A DNA stretch of 24,000 nt from positions 646,611-670,610 of the forward strand of contig CAWIQZ010000017.1 of NCBI GenBank assembly GCA_963838465.1, read 5' to 3'. Shown piece after piece: positions 1,058 to 15,615 of this stretch. The DNA comes from an uncultured Bacillaceae bacterium. Its GTDB lineage: Bacteria; Bacillota; Bacilli; Bacillales; Bacillaceae_D. The position numbers and the translations under genes were made by a program. The notes beneath the pieces are model-generated. The model searched no databases. It had not been told where the DNA came from and saw nothing but the letters and a program-made list of their open reading frames with translations. Every line of letters begins with the position of its first letter. Within the stretch, counting starts at the first letter, position 1.

Positions 1058-1531
1058 CTAAAGCTGATCACGATCAATATCAATTTTATCTTGGTTATCA
1101 AATTCGATATCTAAATCAAAATCTGTAACATCTTCCCGGTTAATCTCAAAATATGCTAATACTTGATCGATGATTTCATCTTCATTCATTTCCTTAGTTA
1201 GATTTAAATCAGTAAACATTTGTTCAATCTCTGCTAATGCTTCAGATCCGGTTAAAGTTTGAGCACCAGCTACGGAATAAGAAGCCTCCGTTTCATCTCG
1301 TTCAACTTCGTAATCTACATCAATTTTATCATTAGATGCTAACTCAATGTCGAGATCAAAATCAGTGATTTGTCCAGTTGTTTCATCAATTTGACCATTC
1401 TCGGCCGTTTCTTCATTAGGTACGTCAATAGGGGATTCGTTCGCCGTTTCATTAGGTACATCATTCCCACAAGCTGTTAAACTAATGACAAATAGTCCAA
1501 TTAAAATCGTTTTTGTAATCATCTTATTCAT
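1058..1531 (-). CDS. Acidic lipoprotein with an internal duplication (YusW-like by resemblance)
   Basis: The track ORF is 1058..1714, but the ATG at 1531 has an AGGAGGGA Shine-Dalgarno (rc of 1533-1540). From there it reads MNKMITKTILIGLFVISLTACGN, a signal peptide plus lipobox LTAC. Two repeats are present: TDFDLDIE..DKIDVDYE and TDFDLDIE..DKIDIDRD. Confidence 0.8.
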   Translation of the reverse strand: MNKMITKTILIGLFVISLTACGNDVPNETANESPIDVPNEETAENGQIDETTGQITDFDLDIELASNDKIDVDYEVERDETEASYSVAGAQTLTGSEALAEIEQMFTDLNLTKEMNEDEIIDQVLAYFEINREDVTDFDLDIEFDNQDKIDIDRDQL

Positions 1532-1726: not shown

Positions 1727-2782
1727 ATGGATTTTAGAATTAATTTTTTGTCATTTTTTGTTGTTCAAGTTGAGGGGCAAGGAGAGCAAGCTGATAAACG
1801 TTTTAATCATTATCAAACAATAGATGAACAATTGTACATAAACAGTGCCCTTAAAGACTTTCTTGATGGTGAATTAATGAAAGTTGTAAAACGAAAAGTA
1901 GAAAGAAATCCTAAATCAGAACAAGTGCCCACAAAAATCGGCCGTTTTATTGTAGAGCCTGGGTATGAGTTAGAAACGAATCCTAACTATAATCTTTTTA
2001 ACCGTATAAGAACAGCTGCTGATGCAGCTAGTTTTAGAAAAAGCAGTGAAGAGCTTGTCCGAGCATATATGGACACGAGTGCAATTCGGGGAGGAGCCCT
2101 TCTCGTGATCAGGGCACAATTTACAAAATATATGGATGATCCCTTTGTCTTTGTCTTAAAATGTGATTTTGAGCAGAAGGTAGCGTCGATTACCGATGAA
2201 AAAACAATGATCAGAAATGTGGAAAGAGCAATCACAACGAAGAACATGAAATCGATTCAATATCCCTACATGCCAGAAGAAGGCATGGTCGAAGAGTGGG
2301 AACTGAAAATCCACCAATCCTCTCATGCACGCTACTTTGAAGACTTCTTAAAATTTGTCGAGTACCATCAATCAATGCCTGAAATCGTCAAAACGCAAGT
2401 CATTCAAATGGCCCAGCAACACATCGCAGAAACATATCAAGAGGAAACGCCAGAACGAATCCAAGAGGAAGAATACATCGAAGCTTGGTCAAACACACCT
2501 GTGCGTGAACTCCAAGAAAAGTGGACGCCAGAGCAAGTCGTAGAAGCCTCTGCACCGATTGTTGAGCATCAGCCAGAACTACCACTCAAGCTCAAACTCG
2601 ATCATATAGACGTAAAGGCATTGCTTTCTGATTTTGGTGAATCGGTTCATATTGCAAAAGTGAACGGGAAGTATGTGATTGTGATTGAAGGGGATTCATT
2701 TACGTTTGAAAAAGGCGTTTCACCAGTGGAGTTTTTGAAGCCTGAGCCTCTTGAGGAAGTGTTGAAGAGGGTGGGGAGGTAA
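1727..2782 (+). CDS. Conserved hypothetical protein of 351 aa (possibly DUF3900 or distantly NdpA-like; function not established). Integration target of the islands.
   Basis: Long ORF with an AAGGGG Shine-Dalgarno 7 nt upstream of the ATG. Its 3' part is repeated twice downstream. The substitutions between copies are mainly synonymous, which shows it is a real, selected coding sequence. Confidence 0.85.
   Translation: MDFRINFLSFFVVQVEGQGEQADKRFNHYQTIDEQLYINSALKDFLDGELMKVVKRKVERNPKSEQVPTKIGRFIVEPGYELETNPNYNLFNRIRTAADAASFRKSSEELVRAYMDTSAIRGGALLVIRAQFTKYMDDPFVFVLKCDFEQKVASITDEKTMIRNVERAITTKNMKSIQYPYMPEEGMVEEWELKIHQSSHARYFEDFLKFVEYHQSMPEIVKTQVIQMAQQHIAETYQEETPERIQEEEYIEAWSNTPVRELQEKWTPEQVVEASAPIVEHQPELPLKLKLDHIDVKALLSDFGESVHIAKVNGKYVIVIEGDSFTFEKGVSPVEFLKPEPLEEVLKRVGR
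2261..2782 (+). repeat. Copy A of the triplicated 3' end of the 351-aa gene (attL-side homology block)
   Basis: Collinear with 11142-11663 at a constant offset of 8881 with no indels and 28 mismatches in 522 bp. The last 90 bp also match 14091-14180. Confidence 0.9.
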
Positions 2783-2891
2783 TAAAGTAGTACAATTTAT
2801 CGGAATTCTAACTAGATTGTGACCAATAGTGTGACCATGATTTAAACCCTCAATGCCTGTAACACAAGGTTTCCTTTAAATGAATGTGACT

Positions 2892-2919
2892 AACACCTGT
2901 TTATTTGCAGGTGTTTTTT
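2892..2919 (+). terminator. Rho-independent terminator serving the reconstituted 351-aa gene
   Basis: AACACCTG (2892-2899) ... CAGGTGTT followed by a T-run (2914-2919). Confidence 0.6.
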
Positions 2920-3143
2920 CTTATGAATTTTAATAGAAAGGGAATGTCGTTATCCGATTAAGAAAAGTCTTTTTTGTACGGCTGTTTTGAATATTGATGT
3001 TTACATATGGTATCGGGTGATTTGAAAGCATTTTTACTTTGTTAAAATACCTATCAATATTTGTCTTTATCTTCTAATGATAGGACAAAAGTTATATACT
3101 TAACCTATAGAAAGTATGAAAATGGTAAAATTCACAGGAAGAG

Positions 3144-5063
3144 GTGTACTCTGTTTTGAGGAATAAGTCAAAACCGGTTGGTTATCTACTAGCTTTCTTA
3201 TTAGGAGGTCTAGGTGTACATGCATTTTATTACAGAAGATATGTAAGAGGAATTGTATATCTCATTCTATGTTGGACTTATATTCCTATTATTTTGGGAT
3301 GGATTGATATGTTATTTATAAATAAATGGCATAAGCAACTCCAAGAAAGTGGTTCAATTGTGAACAGCGAACCGAAGACGGTAAAAAAACTAAAGCCAAA
3401 GCTTGTATCGGAAGTGAAAAAAGAAAAGAAGCTTGAACAAGTAGTAGACAAGAAGACAGTTGATTCTAAACTGAGTTCGTTGAAGAAGAAACATGTACTT
3501 TATGAGGAAGATGAAATCATACTCACAAAATACAGTCACATTCAAACACCGAAAGAGATTTTGGAAAGTATTGAAGAAATTAAGAATCCTAAAAAGCGTA
3601 CTAATTCGGTAGGTGGGATATCCATTGAAGTCAACTTTTCTCACTCAAATACTGATTTTGTAAAGGATTCAATACGTTATTCTAAAGTGCGAGAGAAAGA
3701 GAGTCCTGAAATTCCATTACAAGCGTACTGGACAACATTTGGTAACTTAAATGACAAACAAAAAAAGTGGTACTTTTACTGGAGAGAACAAGTGTTGAAT
3801 GGCGAGTACCCTGATGTGGACTTAAGTTACATTATCTTATTTATATACGAGTTGATGAATTATTCCTTTAACCAAAAAGCTTCTTTCAATATTAGTATGA
3901 TGGTACGTTTGCATGAGGAGTACAATGGGAGGATACCGAAATTAAGCAATTACTCCACACGTTGGATTGCAGATATGCTCTATGAAGTAAAAGAACAAGA
4001 ATTAGCTCAAGAGTGGGCAGATGAGAGAAATCATATCCCACCACTATATCAGCAATTACAGGATAAAGAAGATAACTTAGCTAAAATCTCGATTACTTCT
4101 TGGAAGCCATATATCCGTAACCATAGAGAAACTGAATATTTTAAGGTCAATAAAAACAAAATTTATAAGGTATTTAAAGAGAGTCTACCTTTGCTCCAAG
4201 AAGTCTATGAGAAAGAAAATAAAAAGTTGCTACAATATTGGTTCAAAATTAACAAGGAGCGTGTCATTCGACATTTGTTTGCTTCTGCGGTTGTAGGACG
4301 AAGCCATGATGGTGTTCATGTGTATGTGGAACGCATCAAACCTACAGATGACCTATCCAAAGAGGTTACGGCATTATTTAAGCTATCTGAAAACGTAACA
4401 CGCCAACTAAATGGAGAAAAGCGTGAGATTAAAGTAAACGAAGAATTTCTGCCGGAAGGATTTAAAGAAATGATGATGGAGCATTTTTCTAATGAGAGAA
4501 ATAGACGATTTAAAGTCGTCCAAAAATCAGAAGAAATAGAACAAGGTGGAGAAATACCACCACCTCCAGAGAAGAAACCGGAAGTAGAAACAAAGCCTAA
4601 AATTGAGTTTAACAAAAGCAATATTGGGAAACTACAAACAGATACTGACAGGTTGATTGAAACGATTAATTCTAGAAGTGAAGCGGAAGAGCACGAGGTT
4701 AAAGAACAACTCAAAGATAAAGAAAAGGAAGAAGTTCGCACGAATCCACCAGAACAAAAAACGCCACTTACAACGGAAACAGATGTCCTATCAGCTTTAG
4801 GTGGAGGGGCAGAGTTTGAAGGGGAAGTAGAATTCCTCGAAATATTAACGGATATTGAAAAGGGATTTTTAAACCAATTCGAAAACGGTAAATATAACCA
4901 AGAATCAGCCAATTTGTTTATTAAGCAAAAAGGACTCATGTTAGGTATGTTTATAAGTGAGTTAAATGAAAAGGCGAACGAATATATTGGGGACAACCTT
5001 CTTGAAAGTCAAGGGGACGATATTGTCGTGTATGAAGAATACGAACATGTATTTCTGAAATAA
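3144..5063 (+). CDS. TM2-domain membrane anchor fused to a TerB-N and TerB-C domain protein (SngA-like)
   Basis: N-terminus KPVGYLLAFLLGGLGVHAFYYRRYVRGIVYLILCWTYIPIILGWIDMLFI has two TM helices in a TM2-like pattern. Residues ~190-400 (YWTTFGNLNDKQKKWYFYWREQVL..DLSYIILFIYELMN) look like TerB-N. The C-terminus (IEFNKSNIGKLQTDTDRLIETI ... LTDIEKGFL...ISELNEKANEYIGDNLLE) looks like TerB-C, interrupted by K/E/P-rich low complexity. The start is uncertain: GTG 3144 or TTG 3156. Confidence 0.75.
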   Translation: MYSVLRNKSKPVGYLLAFLLGGLGVHAFYYRRYVRGIVYLILCWTYIPIILGWIDMLFINKWHKQLQESGSIVNSEPKTVKKLKPKLVSEVKKEKKLEQVVDKKTVDSKLSSLKKKHVLYEEDEIILTKYSHIQTPKEILESIEEIKNPKKRTNSVGGISIEVNFSHSNTDFVKDSIRYSKVREKESPEIPLQAYWTTFGNLNDKQKKWYFYWREQVLNGEYPDVDLSYIILFIYELMNYSFNQKASFNISMMVRLHEEYNGRIPKLSNYSTRWIADMLYEVKEQELAQEWADERNHIPPLYQQLQDKEDNLAKISITSWKPYIRNHRETEYFKVNKNKIYKVFKESLPLLQEVYEKENKKLLQYWFKINKERVIRHLFASAVVGRSHDGVHVYVERIKPTDDLSKEVTALFKLSENVTRQLNGEKREIKVNEEFLPEGFKEMMMEHFSNERNRRFKVVQKSEEIEQGGEIPPPPEKKPEVETKPKIEFNKSNIGKLQTDTDRLIETINSRSEAEEHEVKEQLKDKEKEEVRTNPPEQKTPLTTETDVLSALGGGAEFEGEVEFLEILTDIEKGFLNQFENGKYNQESANLFIKQKGLMLGMFISELNEKANEYIGDNLLESQGDDIVVYEEYEHVFLK

Positions 5064-5076
5064 AGGAGTTACACGT

Positions 5077-6393
5077 ATGAATATTAAGAAAAGAGACTCT
5101 TCCGCTGTATTAAATTCTCTATCTGGTGGAGTTGTTCCGAGTCGAGGATTGCAGTATATTATGGTCGGTAGAGCTGAAGAAGCTAAGCAAATCCTCAGCG
5201 ATTTGGATAATATTAAAAAGGGCTCATCATTTATTAAATTGTTCATTGGACCTTTCGGTAGTGGGAAAAGTTTCATCCAAGCCCTTATTCAGCAAATTGC
5301 TTTTAATGAAAAGTTTGTTGTAGCAAAAGCAGACTTCACACCAGAACGTAGATTATATGGTAGTGAAGGCAAGGCTGTAGCTATTTACACAGAAATGATG
5401 AAAAATTTATCTACAAATACTGTACCAGATGGCGGGGCGTTGTCGACCATATTAGATAAGTGGATTGGTGATGTTCAAATGAAAGTAGTGAAAGAGAGGG
5501 AATACACATCTGTAGAATTCGATAACCCAAATTTCGTTAAAGATGTGGAACATGAAATTACTAGTACGGTTTCTAAAATGGATGAATTGGTAGGTGGTTA
5601 TGACTTTGCACGAATCTTAACTCTTTATTTTAAAGGTTTCGTGGAAGATAACAGTGACTTACAAAGGTGTGCATTAAGATGGCTTAGAGGGGAATACAAT
5701 ACTAAAACTGAAGCTCGTACGGACTTAGGTGTTAGGGATATCATCAATGATAGTAATTATTATGAGTTTATTAAAGTCTTATCACAGTTCGTTAAACAAA
5801 TTGGATACTCTGGTCTTGTTATCAACTTTGATGAAGCAATTAATTTATATAAAATTACTCATCCTCAAACTAGAGATAAGAACTATGAAACCATTTTAAA
5901 GATATATAATGATACGCTGCAAGGAAATGTAGAGGGACTGTATATCACGATCGGAGGAACTCCTGAGTTCCTCCAGGATGAAAGACGAGGGTTATTTAGC
6001 TACGGTGCTCTGAAAAGAAGACTTCAATCCAATCGTTTTGAAACAACTGAATTTCGCGATTTATCACAACCTGTTATTACTTTAACACCTTTAAAACACG
6101 ATGAAACTTTTGTTTTGTTACAGAAAATAAGGGATATCCATGCTGTTCATTACGGTTATGAGAGTATGGTCAATGATGATGAAATCATGAGTTTTATTCA
6201 AGAAGAATATGCTAGACCGGGTGCAGAGGAGAATTTAACAGTTGGTGAAGTTATCCGTAATTTTATTGGTGCATTAAATATTCTTCATCAAAATCCCAAT
6301 TACGAGCGTTCCAATCTATTTGGTGAGAAAAATAGTGAAGAAAAAGCATCAGAATCGAATATCAACTCTCGTTTTTCTCGAACGGAAGGGTAG
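5077..6393 (+). CDS. P-loop ATPase of the DUF2791 / BrxD-like type (SngB-like)
   Basis: Begins 13 nt after the upstream stop. Walker A is GPFGSGKS (5248-5271) and a Walker B-like motif is LVINFDEA. The N-terminal SGGVVPSRGLQYIMVGR motif resembles DUF2791-family ATPases as I recall them. Confidence 0.75.
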   Translation: MNIKKRDSSAVLNSLSGGVVPSRGLQYIMVGRAEEAKQILSDLDNIKKGSSFIKLFIGPFGSGKSFIQALIQQIAFNEKFVVAKADFTPERRLYGSEGKAVAIYTEMMKNLSTNTVPDGGALSTILDKWIGDVQMKVVKEREYTSVEFDNPNFVKDVEHEITSTVSKMDELVGGYDFARILTLYFKGFVEDNSDLQRCALRWLRGEYNTKTEARTDLGVRDIINDSNYYEFIKVLSQFVKQIGYSGLVINFDEAINLYKITHPQTRDKNYETILKIYNDTLQGNVEGLYITIGGTPEFLQDERRGLFSYGALKRRLQSNRFETTEFRDLSQPVITLTPLKHDETFVLLQKIRDIHAVHYGYESMVNDDEIMSFIQEEYARPGAEENLTVGEVIRNFIGALNILHQNPNYERSNLFGEKNSEEKASESNINSRFSRTEG

Positions 6394-6401
6394 GTAATGT
6401 T

Positions 6402-8420
6402 ATGACTTCATTTCAATTACTCTCGAAAACAATGCAAAAGAAAATTTGGGATATGAACTGGGATAAACTTACTTCCATTCAAAATAAAACGATTCCAGTC
6501 ATCATTGAAACAACTAAAGATGTGATTGTATCCTCAGGAACTGCTTCTGGTAAAACGGAAGCAGCTTTTTTGCCAATCATTTCATGCATAGAAGAAAACG
6601 CAGAAGAGCAGTTGAAAGTGTTATATATCTCTCCGTTAAAAGCGTTGATTAATAACCAATTTGAGCGGATTGAAAGACTGTGTGAGAATAGCGGTATTTC
6701 CATACATAAATGGCATGGTGATGTAAGTCAAAGTCAAAAAAATAAGTTTGTGAAGAAACCATCTGGGATACTTCAAATTACCCCAGAATCGGTAGAGAGT
6801 TTATTTATTAACAGAACAGAACATATCAAGCATTTATTCAAAGGGGTTGAATTTGTTGTAATTGATGAAATCCATTCCTTTATCAATACCGAAAGAGGGG
6901 TACAATTACGTTCTCTTTTATCTAGGATTGAACATTATACAGATGAAAGAGCCAGAATAGTTGGATTATCAGCTACAATTGATAACTTTGAGCTGGTGAA
7001 AAAATGGGTAAATTATCGTGATACAGAAAATGTGGAAATTATTGAAGCTAAGGGAAGTGACAAAGACCTTTTATACTATTTGATGCATTTTCAAACAGGA
7101 GATGACCGAAAAAAACCGGTTGAGCTGTATGAGGATATTCGAGAATTAACGAGAAATCAAAAAGCTATCATCTTTTGTAATAGTCGAGGAGAAGTAGAAG
7201 AAGTGACGGTGTTTTTAAATCGATTAGCTGAAAGCGATAACATAGGAGAAACATATTATGCCCATCATTCGTCAATTGATAAGAAAGAACGAGAATATGT
7301 AGAAAAGACAATGATGGAATCAAAGATGTCCAAAAGTGTTGTGGCAACTAGTTCTTTAGAGCTTGGAATAGACATTGGTGATGTTGATATTGTTGTCCAA
7401 GTAGATAACACTTTCACAGTGTCCTCGTTGAAGCAGCGGCTAGGGCGGTCAGGAAGAAAAAGAAATGCAAACCAAATGCTGCAACTATATTCAACGGATG
7501 AAGATAGTTTAGTTCAATCCATAGCCGTAATGGAACTTATATTAGAAAAGTGGATAGAACCAGCTGAGGGATATCCAATTCCATATGACATACTATTTCA
7601 TCAAATCATTTCGATTTGTCAAGAAACAAACGGAATTACGAAAGAACAATTGGTCAAAAAAATAAAAGTAAATCATATATTTTTCTCATTGGAAAACGAA
7701 CGAGTTTTAGAATTGATAGAACATATGATTGAACTGGACCATTTAGAAAAAATAAAGGGTAAAAATGAATTAATTGTTGGAATTGAAGGAGAACGAATAC
7801 TAAGAAGCCGGGATTTCTATGCAGTCTTCACGATACCAGAAGAGTTTACCGTGTTAGAAGGTGTACGGAAAATTGGGACGTTAGATAAAACGTCTATGTT
7901 AAATGTTGGGGATAACATTATTCTTGCTGGTAAACTGTGGACGGTGAGAGACATAGATTTTCACAAAAATAAGGTATATGTTCAAAAAACCGTTAACGGA
8001 AAGCCTCCCAGATATGCTGGTGGCGGTATAAAGATTCATAAACGAATCGTTGAAAAAATGATGGAACTCCTGTGTTCCGATCAAGCTATAAGTTATATTG
8101 ATGAAAAAGCTACACAGACATTAAATGATGAGCGAAAGCCCTACCAACACTATGAGGTGAAACCGAATGAACGAGTGTTTTGGGTTAAAGAGGGAGAAAT
8201 CATCTTTGAAACATACACTAGTACAATCGTTGCTCGTAATTTAGTATGGGCATTCCGTGCGTTAGGATTACCTATAAAGTCAGTTGATGGGGTAGGAAGA
8301 ATTACTATTGAAGGTTATTTCGGTGACATAGAAAACGTAATAGAGGAAATGAAAAACAGAGAATGGACTTCTAAGGTATTGTTGGAAAATACAAAGGACG
8401 CAAGAATTTTTCTCTACTAA
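6402..8420 (+). CDS. DEAD/DEAH-box superfamily 2 helicase, Lhr-like (SngC-like). The C-terminus is probably truncated by a frameshift.
   Basis: Motif I GTASGKTE, motif II DEIH, SAT, motif VI QRLGRSGR. Begins 8 nt after the ATPase stop. The +1 frame stays open from 8353 to 8538. Confidence 0.85.
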   Translation: MTSFQLLSKTMQKKIWDMNWDKLTSIQNKTIPVIIETTKDVIVSSGTASGKTEAAFLPIISCIEENAEEQLKVLYISPLKALINNQFERIERLCENSGISIHKWHGDVSQSQKNKFVKKPSGILQITPESVESLFINRTEHIKHLFKGVEFVVIDEIHSFINTERGVQLRSLLSRIEHYTDERARIVGLSATIDNFELVKKWVNYRDTENVEIIEAKGSDKDLLYYLMHFQTGDDRKKPVELYEDIRELTRNQKAIIFCNSRGEVEEVTVFLNRLAESDNIGETYYAHHSSIDKKEREYVEKTMMESKMSKSVVATSSLELGIDIGDVDIVVQVDNTFTVSSLKQRLGRSGRKRNANQMLQLYSTDEDSLVQSIAVMELILEKWIEPAEGYPIPYDILFHQIISICQETNGITKEQLVKKIKVNHIFFSLENERVLELIEHMIELDHLEKIKGKNELIVGIEGERILRSRDFYAVFTIPEEFTVLEGVRKIGTLDKTSMLNVGDNIILAGKLWTVRDIDFHKNKVYVQKTVNGKPPRYAGGGIKIHKRIVEKMMELLCSDQAISYIDEKATQTLNDERKPYQHYEVKPNERVFWVKEGEIIFETYTSTIVARNLVWAFRALGLPIKSVDGVGRITIEGYFGDIENVIEEMKNREWTSKVLLENTKDARIFLY

Positions 8421-8640
8421 ATTTTCTCCGTATTTACCAGAAAGGTTACAAGAGGAGATACACATTGCTAGCGAGATTAATATTCAAGCAATGAAAGAAT
8501 ATCTAATTTCTCATTTATTTAGAATTATAAAATTGTAAAGGTGAGAAAGAACTGACACCTATACCTTACTTAATCAAGAGTTAACCTTGTCTGAATTGGC
8601 TTGGTTAAATAATGTTGTATTGCAACGTTTGAGATAATAA

Positions 8641-8672
8641 TTGTAAGCCCGCAGTCTAAAGTGGGCTTACAA
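8641..8672 (+). terminator. Hairpin terminator downstream of the three-gene operon
   Basis: TTGTAAGCCC (8641-8650) pairs with GGGCTTACAA (8663-8672) in a 10-bp stem. The downstream tract is T-rich but interrupted. Confidence 0.5.
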
Positions 8673-8762
8673 CTTTAGATTTATTATTTTCTATATTTTT
8701 CAAAAAGTAACCTTAAGTTATGATACAATATACTTGTAAAAAATTCATGAGGAGGTTATTTC

Positions 8763-9779
8763 TTGAAGATTATAGCTTTTATTGTAAGTTTAATATTAGT
8801 AACCTTTATTTATGTACAACCTGTAAATGCTGAACCTATTTTTAGAGACATTGAAGAAGATCATTGGGCTTTTGATGAAGTTAATGATCTCGTTAAAAAA
8901 GGGATAGTTAGTGGCTATGAAGATGGAACTTTTAAACCTAACGCAACACTCACTCGTGCTCAAATGGCAGTAATGTTATCTATTGCATTAGATTTGGAGT
9001 TGAAAAACCGTCCGAATCCTAATTTTACTGATGTGTATTCCAATTTCTGGGCTTACAATTCGATAGCCGCAGTCGCAGAAGAAGGAATTATTACAGGTAA
9101 TGATGGTAGATTTCATCCAAGTGAAAACTTGACAAGAGCACAGATGGCAGTAGTATTAAGAAGAGCTTTTGACTTAATTGGAACTACCGAACATAGATTC
9201 AGAGATATTTCACAGAATTTTTGGGCTTACGAGGATATTCAATCTCTTGCAGCAAATGGTATCACAACAGGATATGAGGATAATACTTTCAGACCCAATG
9301 TTCCAGTAACAAGAATACAATTTGTGGCATTTTTAGCACGTTCCCTTAAATTATACGAAGAAGAAAATCCTGTCACAGAAGAACCTGAAGAAAACGAAGA
9401 GATTGAAGTGGAATTTGAATTTTCAGAACTAAATACTCATTATGTATCTCCAGATAATAATATGACTGTCACAATGAAAAATATAGAAGTGATTGATAAT
9501 CAAGGAATTTATGAATACAGAATTACTTATATAGAACAGAACAATACGATTGATAAGGTTATTGATCAAGGAGCTTTTAAAGTTTTCTATGTAAATGGTG
9601 AATCAGAACCTCAATACGGATTTTTTAATAGACTTTTTCCAACAGAATCCGAAACAAGAACCTATACTTTTAAAGCATTAAAATATCAAGAGCCTTATTT
9701 AGTTGAATATGGAAGTGATTTGTTTTTTAATAATGAACCAAAAAATGAATCATTGAAATGGAAAATAGAACTACCGTAA
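8763..9779 (+). CDS. Secreted protein with three S-layer homology (SLH) repeats and an uncharacterised C-terminal domain
   Basis: TTG start after a GAGGAGG Shine-Dalgarno. Signal peptide MKIIAFIVSLILVTFIYVQPVNA. Three SLH repeats (F.D...HWA...V..L...GI..GYEDGTF.PN..LTRAQMAV). Residues ~200-338 have no motif I recognise. Confidence 0.9.
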   Translation: MKIIAFIVSLILVTFIYVQPVNAEPIFRDIEEDHWAFDEVNDLVKKGIVSGYEDGTFKPNATLTRAQMAVMLSIALDLELKNRPNPNFTDVYSNFWAYNSIAAVAEEGIITGNDGRFHPSENLTRAQMAVVLRRAFDLIGTTEHRFRDISQNFWAYEDIQSLAANGITTGYEDNTFRPNVPVTRIQFVAFLARSLKLYEEENPVTEEPEENEEIEVEFEFSELNTHYVSPDNNMTVTMKNIEVIDNQGIYEYRITYIEQNNTIDKVIDQGAFKVFYVNGESEPQYGFFNRLFPTESETRTYTFKALKYQEPYLVEYGSDLFFNNEPKNESLKWKIELP

Positions 9780-9799
9780 AAATTAATATACATTATTTA

Positions 9800-9833
9800 G
9801 ACATACCTTTCAAAATAAAGGGTATGTCTTTTT
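9800..9833 (+). terminator. Rho-independent terminator downstream of the SLH gene
   Basis: AGACATACC (9800-9808) / GGTATGTCT (9821-9829) followed by TTTT. Confidence 0.65.
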
Positions 9834-9942
9834 CATTACTAAGACATCTCGAATCATTATGCTCTTTTTCTAAAACAAATGGTATAATCTTACTATAGGG
9901 ATTAATTATTTACTGGGAAAAGGTCTTTAGGAGGCTCTTTTC

Positions 9943-11073
9943 ATGAAAGGAAGTATAACTAAAAATAAAAAAACTGGTAAATGGGATTTTGTTTTTAGTA
10001 TAGGTCGTGATCCTTTAACTAGTAAATGGAAACAAATTAGAAGAAGAGGATTTGAAACAAAACGTCAAGCTGCAGAAACGATGACCAAGTTACAAGCAGA
10101 GGTATTAGAGGATGAGTTTATTGATTTAGCTAGTCTGACTTACGGTAGTTATATGGAACAATGGTTTGAAGAAAGAAAAAATCATCTTCAGAAATCTACC
10201 TTTGAAACTCAGTACATTTACTTCAAAAACCATATTAAGCCTAGACTTGGACATTTCAGAATCCAAGAGATAAACCCATTGCATATTCAAAAGTTTATTA
10301 ATGATTTGGTTCGGGAGAATGATTATTCTGAGCATACTATTCATTTAGTTTACCGAATTGTTAGTGCTTCATTTAAAAAAGCAAAAATCATAAAATTGGT
10401 CAAAGACAATCCTGCACTTGGCGTTACTCTACCAAAGATTAGAAAAAAAGAAATGAAACTATGGTCATTAGAAGAAGTTAATCATTTTATTTCTGAAGCA
10501 AAAAAAGTCAAGCGTATAACTCGATGTCACATTGGTTTTCTAATTACAATTTTAACGGGAATACGTCAAGGAGAAGTTCTTGCTCTTCGTTGGAAAGATA
10601 TTGATTTGGATAAGCAAATAATTTACATTCGACAGACGTTAACTCAAGCTGCAAGAATTAAAAATGGCGCAAAGAATGACAGTAGTATTCGCTCTATCCA
10701 TATTTCGGATAGCTTGATCACTGAATTGAAGACACATAGAAAACGGATTTTAGAAGAAAAACTCCAACATGGACAGGCATACGATGATTTCGATTTAGTT
10801 ATCTGTACAAGAACAGGTAAGCCGATAATTCCAAGAAATTTTAGAAAAGAGTTCTATAATTTATCTGAGAAAATTAATATGCCTAAAATTCGCTTTCATG
10901 ATCTTCGACACACGCATGCAACAATCTTAATTCAGCAGAATGTGAATGTAAAGTTAATCTCTGAACGGTTAGGTCATTCTGAAATTGGAACAACACTTGA
11001 CACGTATAGTCATGTCTTACCAAACATGCAGAAGATTGTATCAGACGAATTAAATAAAATCATTAGATTATGA
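9943..11073 (+). CDS. int: Tyrosine-type site-specific recombinase (phage integrase family)
   Basis: N-terminal arm-binding-like segment KTGKWDFVFSIGRDPLTSKWKQIRRRGF. Catalytic signature GIRQGEVLALRW ... FHDLRHTHATIL ... LGHSEIGTTLDTYSHV (R..HxxR..Y). Confidence 0.95.
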   Translation: MKGSITKNKKTGKWDFVFSIGRDPLTSKWKQIRRRGFETKRQAAETMTKLQAEVLEDEFIDLASLTYGSYMEQWFEERKNHLQKSTFETQYIYFKNHIKPRLGHFRIQEINPLHIQKFINDLVRENDYSEHTIHLVYRIVSASFKKAKIIKLVKDNPALGVTLPKIRKKEMKLWSLEEVNHFISEAKKVKRITRCHIGFLITILTGIRQGEVLALRWKDIDLDKQIIYIRQTLTQAARIKNGAKNDSSIRSIHISDSLITELKTHRKRILEEKLQHGQAYDDFDLVICTRTGKPIIPRNFRKEFYNLSEKINMPKIRFHDLRHTHATILIQQNVNVKLISERLGHSEIGTTLDTYSHVLPNMQKIVSDELNKIIRL

Positions 11074-11141
11074 CCTACTTTTGTGACCAATAGAGTTAAT
11101 GGAACTGAAAAGTATTGATATTAAAGGATTTTCAAGCAGTT

Positions 11142-11663
11142 TATCCCTACATGCCAGAAAAAGGCATGGTCGAAGAGTGGGAACTGAAAATCCACCAATC
11201 CTCCCATGCAAGATACTTTGAGGATTTCTTGAAATTTGTCGAGTATCACCAATCGATGCCTGAAATCGTCAAAACGCAAGTCATTCAAATGGCCCAGCAA
11301 CACATCGCAGAAACATATCAAGAGGAAACGCCAGAACGAATCCAAGAGGAAGAATACATCGAAGCTTGGTCAAACACACCCGTGCGTGAACTCCAAGAAA
11401 AGTGGACACCAGAGCAAGTCGTAGAAGCCTCTGCACCGATTGTCGAACATCAGCCAGAACTACCACTCAAGCTCAAACTCGATCATATAGACGTAAAGGC
11501 ATTGCTTTCTGATTTTGGTGAATCTGTTCATATTGCCAAAGTGAACGGAAAGTATGTGATCATTATTGAGGGTGATTCATTTACGTTTGAGAAGGGCGTT
11601 TCACCAGTGGAGTTTTTGAAGCCTGCGCCACTTGAGGAAGTGTTGAAGAGGGTAGGGAGGTAG
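11142..11663 (+). pseudogene. Copy B: displaced 3' fragment (173 codons) of the 351-aa gene, junction between islands 1 and 2
   Basis: 94.6% identical to 2261-2782 with no indels and only 3 amino-acid differences. Homology stops abruptly at 11142. The track ORF 11115..11663 uses a fortuitous TTG. Confidence 0.85.
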
Positions 11664-11726
11664 GGGAAAGTAACCATTCAAATGTGTGTTATTACATGGT
11701 ATTTAGCTTAAATTTTTCCCCTTCAA

Positions 11727-11757
11727 GGCACTGATCAATTTGGTCGGTGTCTTTTTT
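11727..11757 (+). terminator. Rho-independent terminator downstream of copy B
   Basis: GGCACTGATC (11727-11736) pairs with GGTCGGTGTC (11742-11751) using G-U wobbles, followed by TTTTTT. Confidence 0.5.
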
Positions 11758-11815
11758 ATTAACTAAGTCGCAAATGTGCGAAAACAAAATAATCTAACAA
11801 AGGGGAAATGTAAAA

Positions 11816-12538
11816 ATGAACGAGCAACAAACTGTATTACCAAGCTACAAGCAAGTAAAGGATGAGCTAGTACCAATTCCAAACTTTGATAAGTATTATG
11901 CATGCCATCAAAAATTAGGGAAGATTTTTAATAAGCAAAGTGGGAAATGGTTGCTTGTTGACGCTAAAGGTGTTGGAGATAAAAGGTATTTATTAACTAA
12001 ATTAAAAAGTAACGATGGTGAATGGATTCCAGTATATGAGTATGAAGCTATTTTTGCATCTTATTGGGGCCAGTGGAAAACTTGGAGAAATTTCGGTCGA
12101 AAAATGGAAATTGAACATAAGGATCGGAATCCTAAAAATAATAATATCTAAAATCTAAAGCTTGTTGATAGAGTTAGTCAATATACAGACGATGTAATCA
12201 AAGATATGTCAAATAAATCTCGGCTTGATGCTGAACAAGTGGTGATTATTAAAACTGATATTGCTGTTTGGGGAGATGGTAAGATTAAGTTTCATCAAAA
12301 ATGGGCAGATGAGTTGAACTGTTGTAAAAGGACAATCCAAAATATCATACTAGGTAATTCGTGGAAAAATGTTGAACCAACTGTAAGATTAATACATACA
12401 TAACAATAGTCACAGTGTAGTTTAAATTTGAGTGAATACATTAAGCAAGCTGCTAAGTCTTATGGACATGGCTATAGGAATATGTGGAACATTATAAACG
12501 GAAAGTCAAGGAAGCATCTACATAACCAAACCAATTAA
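11816..12538 (+). pseudogene. NUMOD4/HNH homing-endonuclease-like gene inactivated by three in-frame stop codons
   Basis: Track ORFs 11816..12151 and 12206..12403 and a further segment 12428..12538 are all in one frame. They are interrupted only by TAA 12149, TAA 12401 and TAG 12407. The HNH-like motif EIEHKDRNPKNNNI*NLKLV spans the first stop. Two HTH-like repeats follow: KRTIQNIILGNSWKNV and YRNMWNIINGKSRKHL. Confidence 0.75.
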
Positions 12539-12658
12539 AATGATGATTTTAACTATTTCAAATTATAATCTACTAAATTAAATTTCCAAAAAATGATTAA
12601 ATTCCCCTTTGCTAGAGTATAATGTTAATAAGACTTTAGACTTTAAGCGTGATGGTTA

Positions 12659-13093
12659 ATGTCAACAGAGACAACATATGACACTTTGGACTTAAGTGAT
12701 CTAAATAAAGAGTTATACAAAGTTGGAAAACTAACTATTAATATCATAGATTTGCTAAATTTAAGTAGTGAAGAGAAAGATATTATAGTATGGAGAGATA
12801 GATTAAATTATATTGCTAAGCATAAAAATGATTTTGAAACAGAAGAACAATTTTATAAACATATTGAAGCAATCCCTGAAATTATTCAAAATCCTGACTA
12901 TGTAGGATTACATCCAAATGGAAAGAGTCTAGAATTTATAAAAAGAATAGATGAAAACATGCTAGTTGCAGTTAGACTAAGTGATAAAAAGAAACTTGCA
13001 TTTCGTACTTCTTATCCGATAAAACAGAGCAAACTCAACAACTATATTGCTGCGGGAAGGGTTAAATGTGTAAACCCTTCTTTACAAGCATGA
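12659..13093 (+). CDS. Small protein resembling stand-alone PBECR (Barnase-EndoU-ColicinE5/D-RelE-like) nuclease-fold proteins; putative RNase/toxin
   Basis: 144-aa ORF. The pattern IVWRDRLNYIAKHKNDF...YKHIEAIPEIIQNPDYVGLHPNGKSLEFIKRIDENMLVAVRL...LAFRTSYPI matches my memory of PBECR-type proteins on Firmicutes mobile elements. Not verified. Confidence 0.5.
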   Translation: MSTETTYDTLDLSDLNKELYKVGKLTINIIDLLNLSSEEKDIIVWRDRLNYIAKHKNDFETEEQFYKHIEAIPEIIQNPDYVGLHPNGKSLEFIKRIDENMLVAVRLSDKKKLAFRTSYPIKQSKLNNYIAAGRVKCVNPSLQA

Positions 13094-13109
13094 ATCAACA
13101 TGGTATATT
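13081..13109 (+). promoter_or_regulatory. Sigma-A-like promoter with extended -10, overlapping the 3' end of the upstream CDS
   Basis: -35 TTTACA (13081-13086), 17-bp spacer, TGgTATATT (13101-13109). Confidence 0.45.
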
Positions 13110-13115
13110 GATCAT

Positions 13116-13261
13116 ACACTATAGAAATAAGTTATTTGAGGACGGAACAGGCAGCCGTCACGCCCTTTCAGGGTCTTATAAGAGATGTAGGATACGCCAC
13201 CCTACCAAGTAACTTATTAACGTTTAAAGACCTCCTCATTCATTTGAGTGAGGTCTTTTTC
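13116..13261 (+). ncRNA. Candidate structured small RNA (about 145 nt): 9-bp closing stem, three internal hairpins and its own terminator
   Basis: P1 13126-13134/13210-13218 (AATAAGTTA/TAACTTATT). H1 GACGG/CCGTC 13141-45/13155-59. H2 GCCC/GGGT 13162-65/13171-74. H3 GTAGG/CCTAC 13187-91/13201-05. Terminator 13227-13261. No ORF fits. The family is not recognised. Confidence 0.4.
13227..13261 (+). terminator. Rho-independent terminator
   Basis: AAGACCTC (13227-13234) pairs with GAGGTCTT (13250-13257). An inner CTC/GAG helix follows across a 1-nt bulge. Then TTTTT. Confidence 0.7.
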
Positions 13262-13417
13262 TCTAAGATTAAAGGGTTTTTATAATAATACTGTTCAGGT
13301 ATTATTATAAAATTAAGTAGAAAGTGTGGCGATCAAATGGTTAGTATACCGTTAAGCCAAAAGAAGAAACGTTTAACCATATCATTAGATGAACCCACTC
13401 CCCGTTAACCTTTAGTG

Positions 13418-13446
13418 TTGTCTTTGTCAACAAAAATTGGTATAAT
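13418..13446 (+). promoter_or_regulatory. Sigma-A-like promoter for the small-ORF/MazF-like pair
   Basis: -35 TTGTCT (13418-13423), 17-bp spacer, extended -10 TGgTATAAT (13438-13446). Confidence 0.5.
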
Positions 13447-13524
13447 TTCCTTATAGACAACCATATACTAATACCACTTTTACTAACGGGCGGTGAGTAT
13501 ATGTGTAAAGAGGAGGAGAAAGAT

Positions 13525-13680
13525 ATGGAAAAAACTATGGAAAGAAAAGATTATAAAAAACTAAATCTTAACCATGAAAAAATAAACAGTATCTCAGTTA
13601 CTCCTAAAGTTAAAGATGGGAAATTACTTTTCAACGAGAACAATAAAGATCATCGCTACATTGTTGAAGATGATCTTTAA
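13525..13680 (+). CDS. 51-aa ORF absent from the ORF track; candidate antitoxin partner of the downstream MazF-like toxin
   Basis: ATG 13525 preceded by AGAGGAGGAG (13510-13519). Reads MEKTMERKDYKKLNLNHEKINSISVTPKVKDGKLLFNENNKDHRYIVEDDL. Stops 15 nt before the toxin ATG. Too short for the ORF track. Confidence 0.5.
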   Translation: MEKTMERKDYKKLNLNHEKINSISVTPKVKDGKLLFNENNKDHRYIVEDDL

Positions 13681-13695
13681 AAAGTTCAAAATTTC

Positions 13696-14052
13696 ATGCA
13701 AATAGGTGACATCTTCTATTTTGATGTAGCATATACTGATGACCCATCTAAATCAAGCAATAGACCAGTATTAATTATCGATGAACTAGAAGATGATATG
13801 TTATTACTAATCTCAACAACTACAAAAGGAAGAAAATATCCAATTAGTGGTTATGACCGCTATAAGATTCCGATTCAAAATTGGAGAAAAACAGGTTTGG
13901 ATAGACCTTCTTGGTGTCGTGGGAAGATATTGATCAGGCTTCATAAGGATGAAATTGACTCGCTAGTTAAGATAAGTGATTATATAGGTAGGATGCATCC
14001 AGAAGATTTTAACATAATTATAGAAGAGTTAGAAAAGATTCATAGCAATTAA
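13696..14052 (+). CDS. PemK/MazF-like toxin (putative endoribonuclease)
   Basis: 118 aa. GDIFYFDV...SNRPVLII...MLLLISTTTK follows the PemK/MazF layout (GdI..vdf ... RPvlvl ... v.v.piTs). No Shine-Dalgarno of its own, which suggests coupling to the upstream small ORF. Confidence 0.6.
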   Translation: MQIGDIFYFDVAYTDDPSKSSNRPVLIIDELEDDMLLLISTTTKGRKYPISGYDRYKIPIQNWRKTGLDRPSWCRGKILIRLHKDEIDSLVKISDYIGRMHPEDFNIIIEELEKIHSN

Positions 14053-14090
14053 ACCTCAAAATCTCCCCTACTCTATATGAGTTAAAGGGA

Positions 14091-14180
14091 GATTCATTTA
14101 CGTTTGAAAAAGGCGTTTCACCAGTGGAGTTTTTGAAGCCTGAGCCACTTGAGGAAGTGTTGAAGAGGGTGGGGAGGTAG
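14091..14180 (+). repeat. Copy C: last 90 bp of the 351-aa gene (attR-side remnant next to chromosomal DNA)
   Basis: Matches 2693-2782 and 11574-11663. At the five variable sites inside the gene it agrees with copy A at four and with copy B at one. It also shares the TAG stop and the post-stop GGGAAAG with copy B. Confidence 0.85.
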
Positions 14181-14280
14181 GGGAAAGGGAGAGTAAGAGT
14201 AAGCTTTAGTAACAGTTCCCAAAACAAAGCCACAAGTAGTATAATAATGTAAAAAATAAACATACAGGAAGGTTGGTATT

Positions 14281-15615
14281 ATGGTAAACGAAGAAAAAAT
14301 ATTATCAACCAAAAAAATTCTTGTGTTTTTTGTCCCTTTAGGGTTATCAGCAAGTTTAGTTATGTTTTCCCATATGATCATAAACGGTACGCTAACGAGA
14401 GGGGAAGATGCTGAAGTAATTATTGCTAGCTATGTTATTGCAATGAGCTTATTTGCGATAACAGAACGGCTAGGTGTTTTATTACGTAATGCTTGCTCTG
14501 CACTAGTTCGTGACAAGATTTCGTTTAAAGCGATGTCGACAGTTGCTGCCTATGTAGTATCCGTGTTAATGATTATTTCAGTAACAATCGCTTATACTCC
14601 TATAGGTAAGTGGATATTTTCAGTACTATTTGGCGCAGACCCTACGATGATTGATCAAATCGTAGACGTTTATCAAATTTTAATAATTGTTACGTTTTTT
14701 TCAGCGATTCGTTGTTTATTTCAAGGGGTTATCATTATAAATCGGCAAACAAAATGGTTGACAATAGGAATGATTATACGCTTAATCGGAATGTATGTAT
14801 TATCATGGATCTTTATACATAACGGAAACATTAGTGCGAAAACAGGAGCATATATCTTTTTAGCTGGGATGATTATAGAAAGTATTGTTAGTTTTATAGA
14901 AGGACGATTTTTAGTAAAAAAAATGATTGAGAAAAAAAAGAGTCACCCGATTACAACAAAGGCTCAGATTTTTCGATTTTATAACCCACTCATTTTATCA
15001 TCTTTGATCATTGTCATGGTTGGTCCCATTATAAATGTATTTCTAGGAAGGACTAATGAAATAGAATTGGCAATTGCTGCTTACGCAATTGCCTTAAGTA
15101 TTGCACAATTAATCTTAAGTTTTTTTACTTATACTCATCAGATTGTTCTAACATTTTATAAAGATCATCCTAAAAAAGTAAAACAATTTACAAAGATGAT
15201 AGGAGTCATTCCAACTGTCATATTAGGTATATTTTGCTTCACTCCATTAGGTGCTTTCTTTATTGAACATATATTAGGTGCTAATGAACGTTTAGTGGAA
15301 GCTAGTCTAGAAAGCTTGCAAATATTTATGCTCATGACGCTTGTTTTTCCATTTATCGACTATTGTAATGGGTTGCTAATGTTGAAAAGTCAAACAAAAA
15401 TGATGGTTCTTTCGCAATCAACAAATCTGATTATCACTTTTCTTATTTTATTGATTGCTTCTACATTTGTACCCTCTTGGAATGGGATGATTGGAGCAAT
15501 GGCACAATCAATAGGAATGCTTGGAGAATTAATCGTGTTATTATTGATCCTTTTAAGACCCAAGCTTAAATGGCCACCTCATTTAATATTAATCAAAAGA
15601 AAAGCGAAATTTTAG
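14281..15615 (+). CDS. MATE/MOP-superfamily polytopic membrane transporter
   Basis: 444 aa with about 12 hydrophobic segments. The two-halves organisation is typical of MatE-like exporters. AGGAAGG Shine-Dalgarno upstream. Confidence 0.7.
   Translation: MVNEEKILSTKKILVFFVPLGLSASLVMFSHMIINGTLTRGEDAEVIIASYVIAMSLFAITERLGVLLRNACSALVRDKISFKAMSTVAAYVVSVLMIISVTIAYTPIGKWIFSVLFGADPTMIDQIVDVYQILIIVTFFSAIRCLFQGVIIINRQTKWLTIGMIIRLIGMYVLSWIFIHNGNISAKTGAYIFLAGMIIESIVSFIEGRFLVKKMIEKKKSHPITTKAQIFRFYNPLILSSLIIVMVGPIINVFLGRTNEIELAIAAYAIALSIAQLILSFFTYTHQIVLTFYKDHPKKVKQFTKMIGVIPTVILGIFCFTPLGAFFIEHILGANERLVEASLESLQIFMLMTLVFPFIDYCNGLLMLKSQTKMMVLSQSTNLIITFLILLIASTFVPSWNGMIGAMAQSIGMLGELIVLLLILLRPKLKWPPHLILIKRKAKF

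Follow-up and report, generated by a model that had tools for sequence, protein, structure and literature searches.

Mobile elements that enter a gene and hand it a substitute end are best known from prophage e14, which displaces the 163-bp end of the Escherichia coli icd gene and supplies a replacement (PMC6379469, citing Hill et al. 1989). In tandem accretion, exemplified by ICESt1/ICESt3 at fda of Streptococcus thermophilus, successive site-specific integrations at a rebuilt site lead to arrays of attachment (att) repeats (PMC5704250, citing Pavlovic et al. 2004 and Bellanger et al. 2011). Shango has been described as a system that acts against phages and occurs in mobile defence hotspots (PMC10250203; bioRxiv 10.1101/2022.05.11.491447). 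Here we analyze a 24,000-nucleotide (nt) stretch of an uncultured Bacillaceae bacterium (GCA_963838465.1, contig CAWIQZ010000017.1, positions 646,611–670,610, forward strand; hereafter, the window). We consider it very probable (a probability of about 0.85) that a conserved gene coding for DUF3900 and DUF3898 domains has two mobile islands in its 3′ half, one behind the other, and that each of them brought a replacement gene end. Island 1, next to the gene, carries the Shango genes; island 2 follows it.

As with e14 and phage 21 in icd, a tyrosine-integrase element occupies the 3′ part of a gene, an alternative end is supplied that leaves the gene intact, and a pseudo-3′-end is displaced. In contrast to e14, the cassette is 522 bp long and takes up half of the gene, with DUF3898 in its entirety; island 1 carries a defence system in place of a prophage, and several islands are stacked. 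In addition, the target gene, unlike icd, has no known function. The locus also resembles the accretion seen with integrative and conjugative elements (ICEs), integrative and mobilizable elements (IMEs) and cis-mobilizable elements (CIMEs), in which older members decay and lose the integrase (PMC5704250). However, conjugation and mobilization genes are absent from the islands by Pfam and PADLOC. Moreover, a CIME keeps both att sites, whereas island 2 has a truncated distal repeat from which the two candidate crossover sites are missing. Like other integrase-bounded defence islands, sister elements carry defence-type genes (Shedu SduA, Mrr, OLD-TOPRIM and HEPN). The insertion mechanism itself is textbook knowledge. 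New are the target gene, a cassette as large as half a gene, the breadth of the integrase lineage and the likely internal exchange point.

Three copies of a gene end and an empty site

The target gene (1727–2782, plus strand) is still intact after insertion: its 351-aa product is a full match to both Pfam domains, which are spanned end to end. Orthologues were collected from 77 Bacillaceae loci. The product has no relative in PDB and no NCBIfam model. A full-text literature search for DUF3900 returned no paper, and we found no published description of an insertion hotspot at this gene.

The 3′ end of the gene is present three times on the plus strand, as established by repeat detection, the list of open reading frames (ORFs), alignment and a three-way comparison with the closest genome found, that of Halalkalibacter nanhaiisediminis (L001). 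Copy A (2261–2782), the left junction (attL side), and copy B (11142–11663), a displaced 3′ half that keeps an open 182-codon frame, both correspond to the last 522 bp (174 codons) of the gene. They are colinear at an offset of 8881, without indels, and 94.6% identical. Copy C (14091–14180), what is left of an older displaced 3′ end after truncation, corresponds to the last 90 bp (the equivalent of 2693–2782); its identity is 97.8% with copy A and 95.6% with copy B. The repeat finder paired 2261–2560 with 11142–11441, and 2688–2789 with both 11569–11670 and 14086–14187 (offsets of 8881 and 2517). Homology begins abruptly at 11142 in copy B and at approximately 14091 in copy C. The TAG stop and the post-stop GGGAAAG are common to copies B and C, while the end of copy A reads TAATAAAG. 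An earlier sequence-only reading of the window had reported the three copies with their coordinates, offset, abrupt edges and the states of stop codon and flank, all of which were borne out.

Since the copies follow each other in the same orientation inside 12 kb of DNA, it might be argued that they represent a local segmental duplication or an assembly artefact, the latter being one of two outcomes that the sequence-only reading itself had named as refuting it. This can hardly be the case, nor are the matches due to chance. About 5% of sites differ between the copies, mostly synonymously, unrelated cargo including an integrase separates them, and each has unique flanks. The same layout recurs in other species and in independent assemblies, and a relative has an empty site. 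Furthermore, 35 of the 40 in-gene variable sites among the three copies and the nearest orthologue are third codon positions, which indicates that the copies diverged as coding sequences and are not assembly duplicates.

The target-gene orthologues place the window in Halalkalibacter. The empty site comes from H. nanhaiisediminis. Its gene order is CBS, YusW, target gene, DAGK, MFS and moa genes. The flanks are the same as in the window, and the islands, copy B and copy C are all missing, so that this locus represents an empty site in a relative of another species and provides the island-free comparison that the sequence-only reading had proposed as a check. The gene end is single-copy in most of the 77 orthologue loci. 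Precisely at position 2261, where the cassette has its left edge, the identity between the window and H. nanhaiisediminis rises from 83% to 95%, the 3′ half concerned being 10535–11056 of L001. Probably, a related element once replaced the H. nanhaiisediminis gene end as well and later disappeared, and we count the step as evidence for horizontal spread of the cassette.

Direction of replacement and the exchange point

The direction of replacement is best seen in Peribacillus huizhouensis. Up to nt 662 its gene is 90% identical to those of the sister species (L072 and L058), but from nt 663 to the stop the fused copy is only 55–57% identical to them. The displaced fragment beside the integrase, in contrast, is 91% identical to the same sister genes over nt 538–1050. 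Thus, the distal part of the gene in use comes from the element, and the native end is pushed aside.

In the window, we compared copies A and B with the H. nanhaiisediminis gene site by site. Over 2279–2374, copy A agrees with H. nanhaiisediminis and copy B is private at 10 sites. Over 2375–2499 (125 bp), copies A and B are identical and H. nanhaiisediminis differs at seven sites. Over 2500–2713, copy B agrees with H. nanhaiisediminis and copy A is private at 13 sites. The left/right split of B-private and A-private sites is significant (Fisher P = 1e-4). The simplest reading would involve two parents, a resident end close to that of H. nanhaiisediminis and an element cassette differing from it by ∼5–9%, with a single reciprocal exchange between element cassette and host gene within 2375–2499 (plus strand), the interval between the last B-private site (2374) and the first A-private site (2500). 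Copy A would then be host-type over 2261–2374, identical to copy B over 2375–2499 and element-type over 2500–2782. Correspondingly, the left 114 bp of copy B would be element-type and its right part would be the former resident end. The signature of reciprocal exchange thus resides in copies A and B, as judged against H. nanhaiisediminis, and not in copy C, where the sequence-only reading had sought it by interpreting copy C as a mosaic of A-type and B-type states that fits chimeric att products. Over the shared 90 bp, no change is private to copy C, and each variable site singles out either A or B. Therefore, copy C merely shows the consensus state of three related sequences, and its states require no recombination.

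The corresponding exchange interval of P. huizhouensis is gene nt 613–662, and its overlap with the interval of the window is 14 bp, 2375–2388 (ATGCCTGAAATCGT). An alternative crossover site is the left edge of the repeat, CCCTACATGCC (2264–2274, plus strand). The sequence TACATGCC is identical at both junctions in all six of the genomes compared. Both candidate sites contain ATGCCNGAA (at 2270 and 2375), which elsewhere on this strand of the window occurs only at the matching places of copy B. The exchange start points that are well supported all fall inside the cassette and none to its left, and we conclude that the exchange is confined to the cassette. The crossover itself would lie either at 2375–2388 or at the left edge, 2264–2274.

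An inverted repeat, CATGCC-N7-GGCATG (2270–2288), was also considered as the overlap region. This is unlikely, as its spacer differs between the junctions in three genomes.

Island 1 and its candidate attachment sites

Island 1 (2783–11141) carries the three Shango genes, a gene for a surface protein and a tyrosine integrase, all on the plus strand. SngA (3144–5063) combines TM2, TerB-N and TerB-C domains (PADLOC 2.7e-54; Pfam), SngB (5077–6393) is a BrxC/D-like ATPase (PADLOC 5e-174) and SngC (6402–8420) is a DEAD/Lhr-type helicase (PADLOC 5e-208). Adjacent, co-oriented and in the usual order, they form a predicted Shango system. The surface protein (8763–9779) has three SLH repeats according to Pfam. 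The integrase (9943–11073; Pfam Arm-DNA-bind_4, SAM-like and Phage_integrase; PHROG 1) stops 68 bp short of copy B and is the only one in the locus.

Phage structural, conjugation and relaxase genes were searched for in 2783–14090 using Pfam, PHROGs and PADLOC, and none was found; neither island qualifies as a prophage, an ICE or an IME. A Shango operon is also present on a 585-kb Bacillus cereus plasmid (NZ_CP045607.2, 81127–84638), 75% identical at the DNA level to window positions 4816–8326. Consequently, the Shango cargo moves independently of the integrase module.

Short repeats at both ends of island 1 are candidate arm-type integrase sites. The putative P′ sites occupy 2818–2893 (plus strand), with TGTGACCAA at 2818, TGTGACCAT at 2830 and TGTGACTAA at 2885. 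The putative P sites occupy 11070–11090 (plus strand) and consist of ATGACC, overlapping the integrase stop codon, followed by TGTGACCAA. The repeats at the integrase stop are found at the same position in H. alkalisediminis (L075), the B. cereus group (L106), Priestia megaterium (L109) and Peribacillus simplex (L111). In general, tandem GTGACC motifs spaced ∼12 bp apart overlap the integrase stop and, in occupied genomes, recur 36–135 bp past the stop of the intact gene. Such a pair is present within 300 nt past the gene in 9 of the 77 loci and absent from the post-stop region of the other 68, compared with 28 matches in 1.5 Mb overall. Another core-like sequence, CCCTCAATGCC at 2847, was dropped, since such matches with two mismatches are no rarer than expected by chance. 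Separately, we observed a short conserved TGATAT-A-AGG motif 25–35 bp to the left of the displaced-fragment edge in several elements of Halalkalibacter and Salipaludibacillus, namely in the window (11100–11141) and in L075, L078 and L080; it may be a site for an accessory protein.

In our reading, island 1 is a minimal integrative island that consists of an integrase, candidate arm sites at both ends, the 522-bp cassette, and the Shango and SLH cargo. Its integration would be a reciprocal exchange between the element cassette and the host gene. The rebuilt gene (copy A) would keep its own sequence up to the exchange point and continue with element-supplied codons, stop codon and terminator, the last corresponding to a terminator-like hairpin of island 1 at 2892–2915 (plus strand). 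The former resident end would be displaced to the far side, beside the integrase, as copy B, past which there is another terminator-like hairpin (11725–11753, plus strand). Island 2 would stem from another cassette-bearing element that lost its integrase and ∼430 bp of its displaced copy, leaving copy C.

One integrase lineage in several genera

Orthologues of the integrase are 60–78% identical across Bacillaceae, and those of the B. cereus group, Priestia, Peribacillus and Halalkalibacter are 71–78% identical. We examined the neighbourhoods of orthologues in H. alkalisediminis (L075), the B. cereus group (L106–L108), Priestia megaterium (L109), Peribacillus simplex (L111), P. huizhouensis (L113), Bacillus sp. 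BP-3 (L115) and Bacillus sp. 123MFChir2 (L116). Every orthologue fetched is followed, ∼60–100 bp past the integrase stop, by a fragment of the target gene that starts at codon 176–180. The left edge of the displaced fragment is constant in all of them, being at CCCTACATGCC or ∼10 bp before it. Together with the empty site and the P. huizhouensis comparison, this integrase-fragment module, shared by four genera, substantiates the proposal of the sequence-only reading that integrative elements with a replacement 3′ end are stacked here.

The cargo is variable. It includes a UvrD-type helicase and a PD-(D/E)XK nuclease in the B. cereus member, an OLD-TOPRIM protein in the Priestia member, Shedu (SduA), Mrr and MutH in the P. 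huizhouensis member, and AAA_13 and HEPN proteins in strain 123MFChir2. In strain BP-3, an integrase of the same lineage serves a prophage. The 14.7-kb island of H. lacteus carries a nonulosonic-acid biosynthesis cluster and has an ISL3 transposase in place of the integrase: in L080 (8875–9982), a split ISL3-family transposase directly precedes the displaced fragment, which is followed by prkA, a DUF444 gene and spoVR. Comparison of the H. alkalisediminis and H. lacteus arrays with sister species did not single out a native copy, since the 3′ halves are shuffled throughout the genus.

A side observation concerns the P. huizhouensis contig JACJHX010000008 (L053 and L113). There the intact gene is ∼95 kb away from the integrase and the displaced fragment. 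Genes for Shedu (SduA), Mrr, MutH, HNH and a resolvase adjoin the integrase, and prophage tail genes lie past the fragment. The locus is probably a large composite array.

Site-specific versus homologous recombination

It is probable that the integrase catalysed the exchange. Several observations weigh against our main explanation. First, the crossover is not fixed to one site. The window and P. huizhouensis together point to nt 649–662, the change-point between the window and H. nanhaiisediminis is at nt 538, two other species pairs have weaker change-points, likewise near the left edge, at nt 513 and, weakly, at nt 537, and one further pair changes at approximately nt 606. Second, the 125-bp block of identity between copies A and B, which has a chance probability of ∼1.5e-4, resembles a conversion tract and as such is typical of homologous recombination and not of tyrosine-recombinase exchange. 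Third, one candidate arm would be 400–550 bp away from the crossover, which is unusually far. Fourth, no excisionase-like small ORF was noticed near the integrase when ORF translations were read, without profile searches. Finally, searches of a phage collection (DNA and protein), plasmids and viral contigs revealed neither a circular form nor a free attP; the integrases found in these collections are at most 39% identical and come without the cassette.

Several of these points are what one would expect if homologous recombination alone accounted for both the entry and the movement of the islands. The cassette would then provide the homology arm, either in a Campbell-type RecA crossover or in a replacement mediated by transformation, and the integrase would be a passenger or inactive. 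The mosaic nature of the cassettes fits as well. Nevertheless, we consider this explanation improbable. It does not account for an integrase that is conserved at 60–78% and always positioned just before the fragment, for GTGACC repeats retained at both ends across four genera, or for a cassette left edge that is the same everywhere. In addition, the P. huizhouensis cassette is only ∼55% identical to the host past nt 663, too divergent for RecA exchange there. Integrase-mediated entry therefore remains our preferred reading, with one amendment: the cassettes are remodelled as well by homologous (RecA-type) recombination across the 522 bp of shared sequence.

We would give about even odds to a broader proposal, namely, that one well-conserved integrase lineage spread over four genera directs prophages and defence islands alike to one internal region of the DUF3900/DUF3898 gene, and that these elements, each with half of the gene as its cassette, repeatedly overwrite that half and shuffle it between species, a sign of which is that the 5′ and 3′ halves have discordant relationships, with the exchange ∼115 bp inside the cassette and one arm cluster >400 bp away. 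Such a combination of exchange point and arm cluster would be an unusual attP geometry.

The consequences are practical as well as evolutionary. The hotspot can be recognized in Bacillaceae by the DUF3900/DUF3898 gene, an integrase-preceded fragment from codon 176–180 and GTGACC repeats, and it can be mined for defence systems and prophages. The locus also illustrates how such elements replace one half of a host gene and carry this half from species to species. For annotation, the truncated DUF3900/DUF3898 ORFs of 167–182 aa predicted by gene callers beside such integrases are displaced gene ends and not paralogues.

Island 2, stacking and erosion

Island 2 (11664–14090) has no integrase and is a decayed remnant of a cassette-bearing element. 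Its genes, all on the plus strand, are an HNH endonuclease pseudogene (11816–12541), a single frame with in-frame stops, one of them inside the HNH motif, a PBECR3 nuclease-fold protein (12659–13093; Pfam 1.7e-23) and a 59-aa ORF followed by a MazF/PemK-like toxin gene (13501–14052; Pfam, PHROG 1936, ORF list). Domain assignments and the broken HNH frame confirm what the sequence-only reading had noted, namely, that the only integrase precedes copy B and that the segment between copies B and C contains a pseudogene and lacks an integrase.

The direct repeats A, B and C are three att-type repeats that bound adjacent elements, as in tandem accretion. A CIME, an integrase-less member with functional att sites at both ends, is not what island 2 represents: the first base of copy C corresponds to 2693, and neither candidate crossover region (2264–2274 and 2375–2388) is part of it. 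As to relative age, the sequence-only reading had regarded island 2 as older and eroded. Erosion is evident; greater age is only suggested by the decay and is unproven. Its further claim, that the position of island 1 marks it as the recent arrival, does not hold, as insertion of element 1 into the rebuilt gene and insertion of element 2 into copy B would produce the same final map.

Further arrays of fragments are present in L075, L022, L111 and L010. The H. alkalisediminis array (L075) consists of an integrase with a fragment covering codons 180–351, a fragment covering codons 304–351, and an integrase stub with a fragment covering codons 176–292. Salipaludibacillus neizhouensis has two more fragments, one of them followed by its own GTGACC pair, while P. 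simplex and Alkalihalobacillus deserti have one second fragment each.

The short distal fragments in L075 (from codon 304), L111 and L010 raise the question of whether copy C marks a second attachment site, near codon 300–323, used by another integrase family, in which case island 2 would be an intact non-autonomous element. This is very unlikely. The left ends of the short fragments vary, corresponding to window positions 2693, 2636, 2459 (with an internal deletion) and approximately 2515, and one fragment reaches further left and has a frameshift. There is no second integrase near any short fragment, and beside one eroded fragment in L075 an integrase stub persists. The differing left ends, which share no core, the deletions and the frameshifts indicate that the short fragments are eroded full-length copies and not products of a second core. 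Copy C fits the same erosion pattern, in line with the view of island 2 as the remainder of a once complete cassette-bearing element.

Two observations concern possible traces of other elements. In S. neizhouensis (L078, 10001–10498), an orphan fragment covering codons 176–341 is located on the same scaffold as the intact gene, ∼354 kb away from it, and the 10 kb to each side of the fragment yielded no integrase homologue. In the window, a gene for a MatE-like membrane protein (14281–15615) lies directly downstream of copy C. In H. alkalisediminis (L004) and H. akibai (L008), homologues that are 75–76% identical to it sit just upstream of the DUF3900 gene and share its strand. In H. nanhaiisediminis, the place is taken by a 229-aa ORF and a GH18/SLH gene. 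The MatE-like gene could be cargo of a still older element.

Upstream of the target gene, the YusW-like gene (minus strand) contains a 54-nt internal direct repeat (window positions 1073–1126 and 1313–1366, 70% identity), which probably reflects a repeated protein segment.

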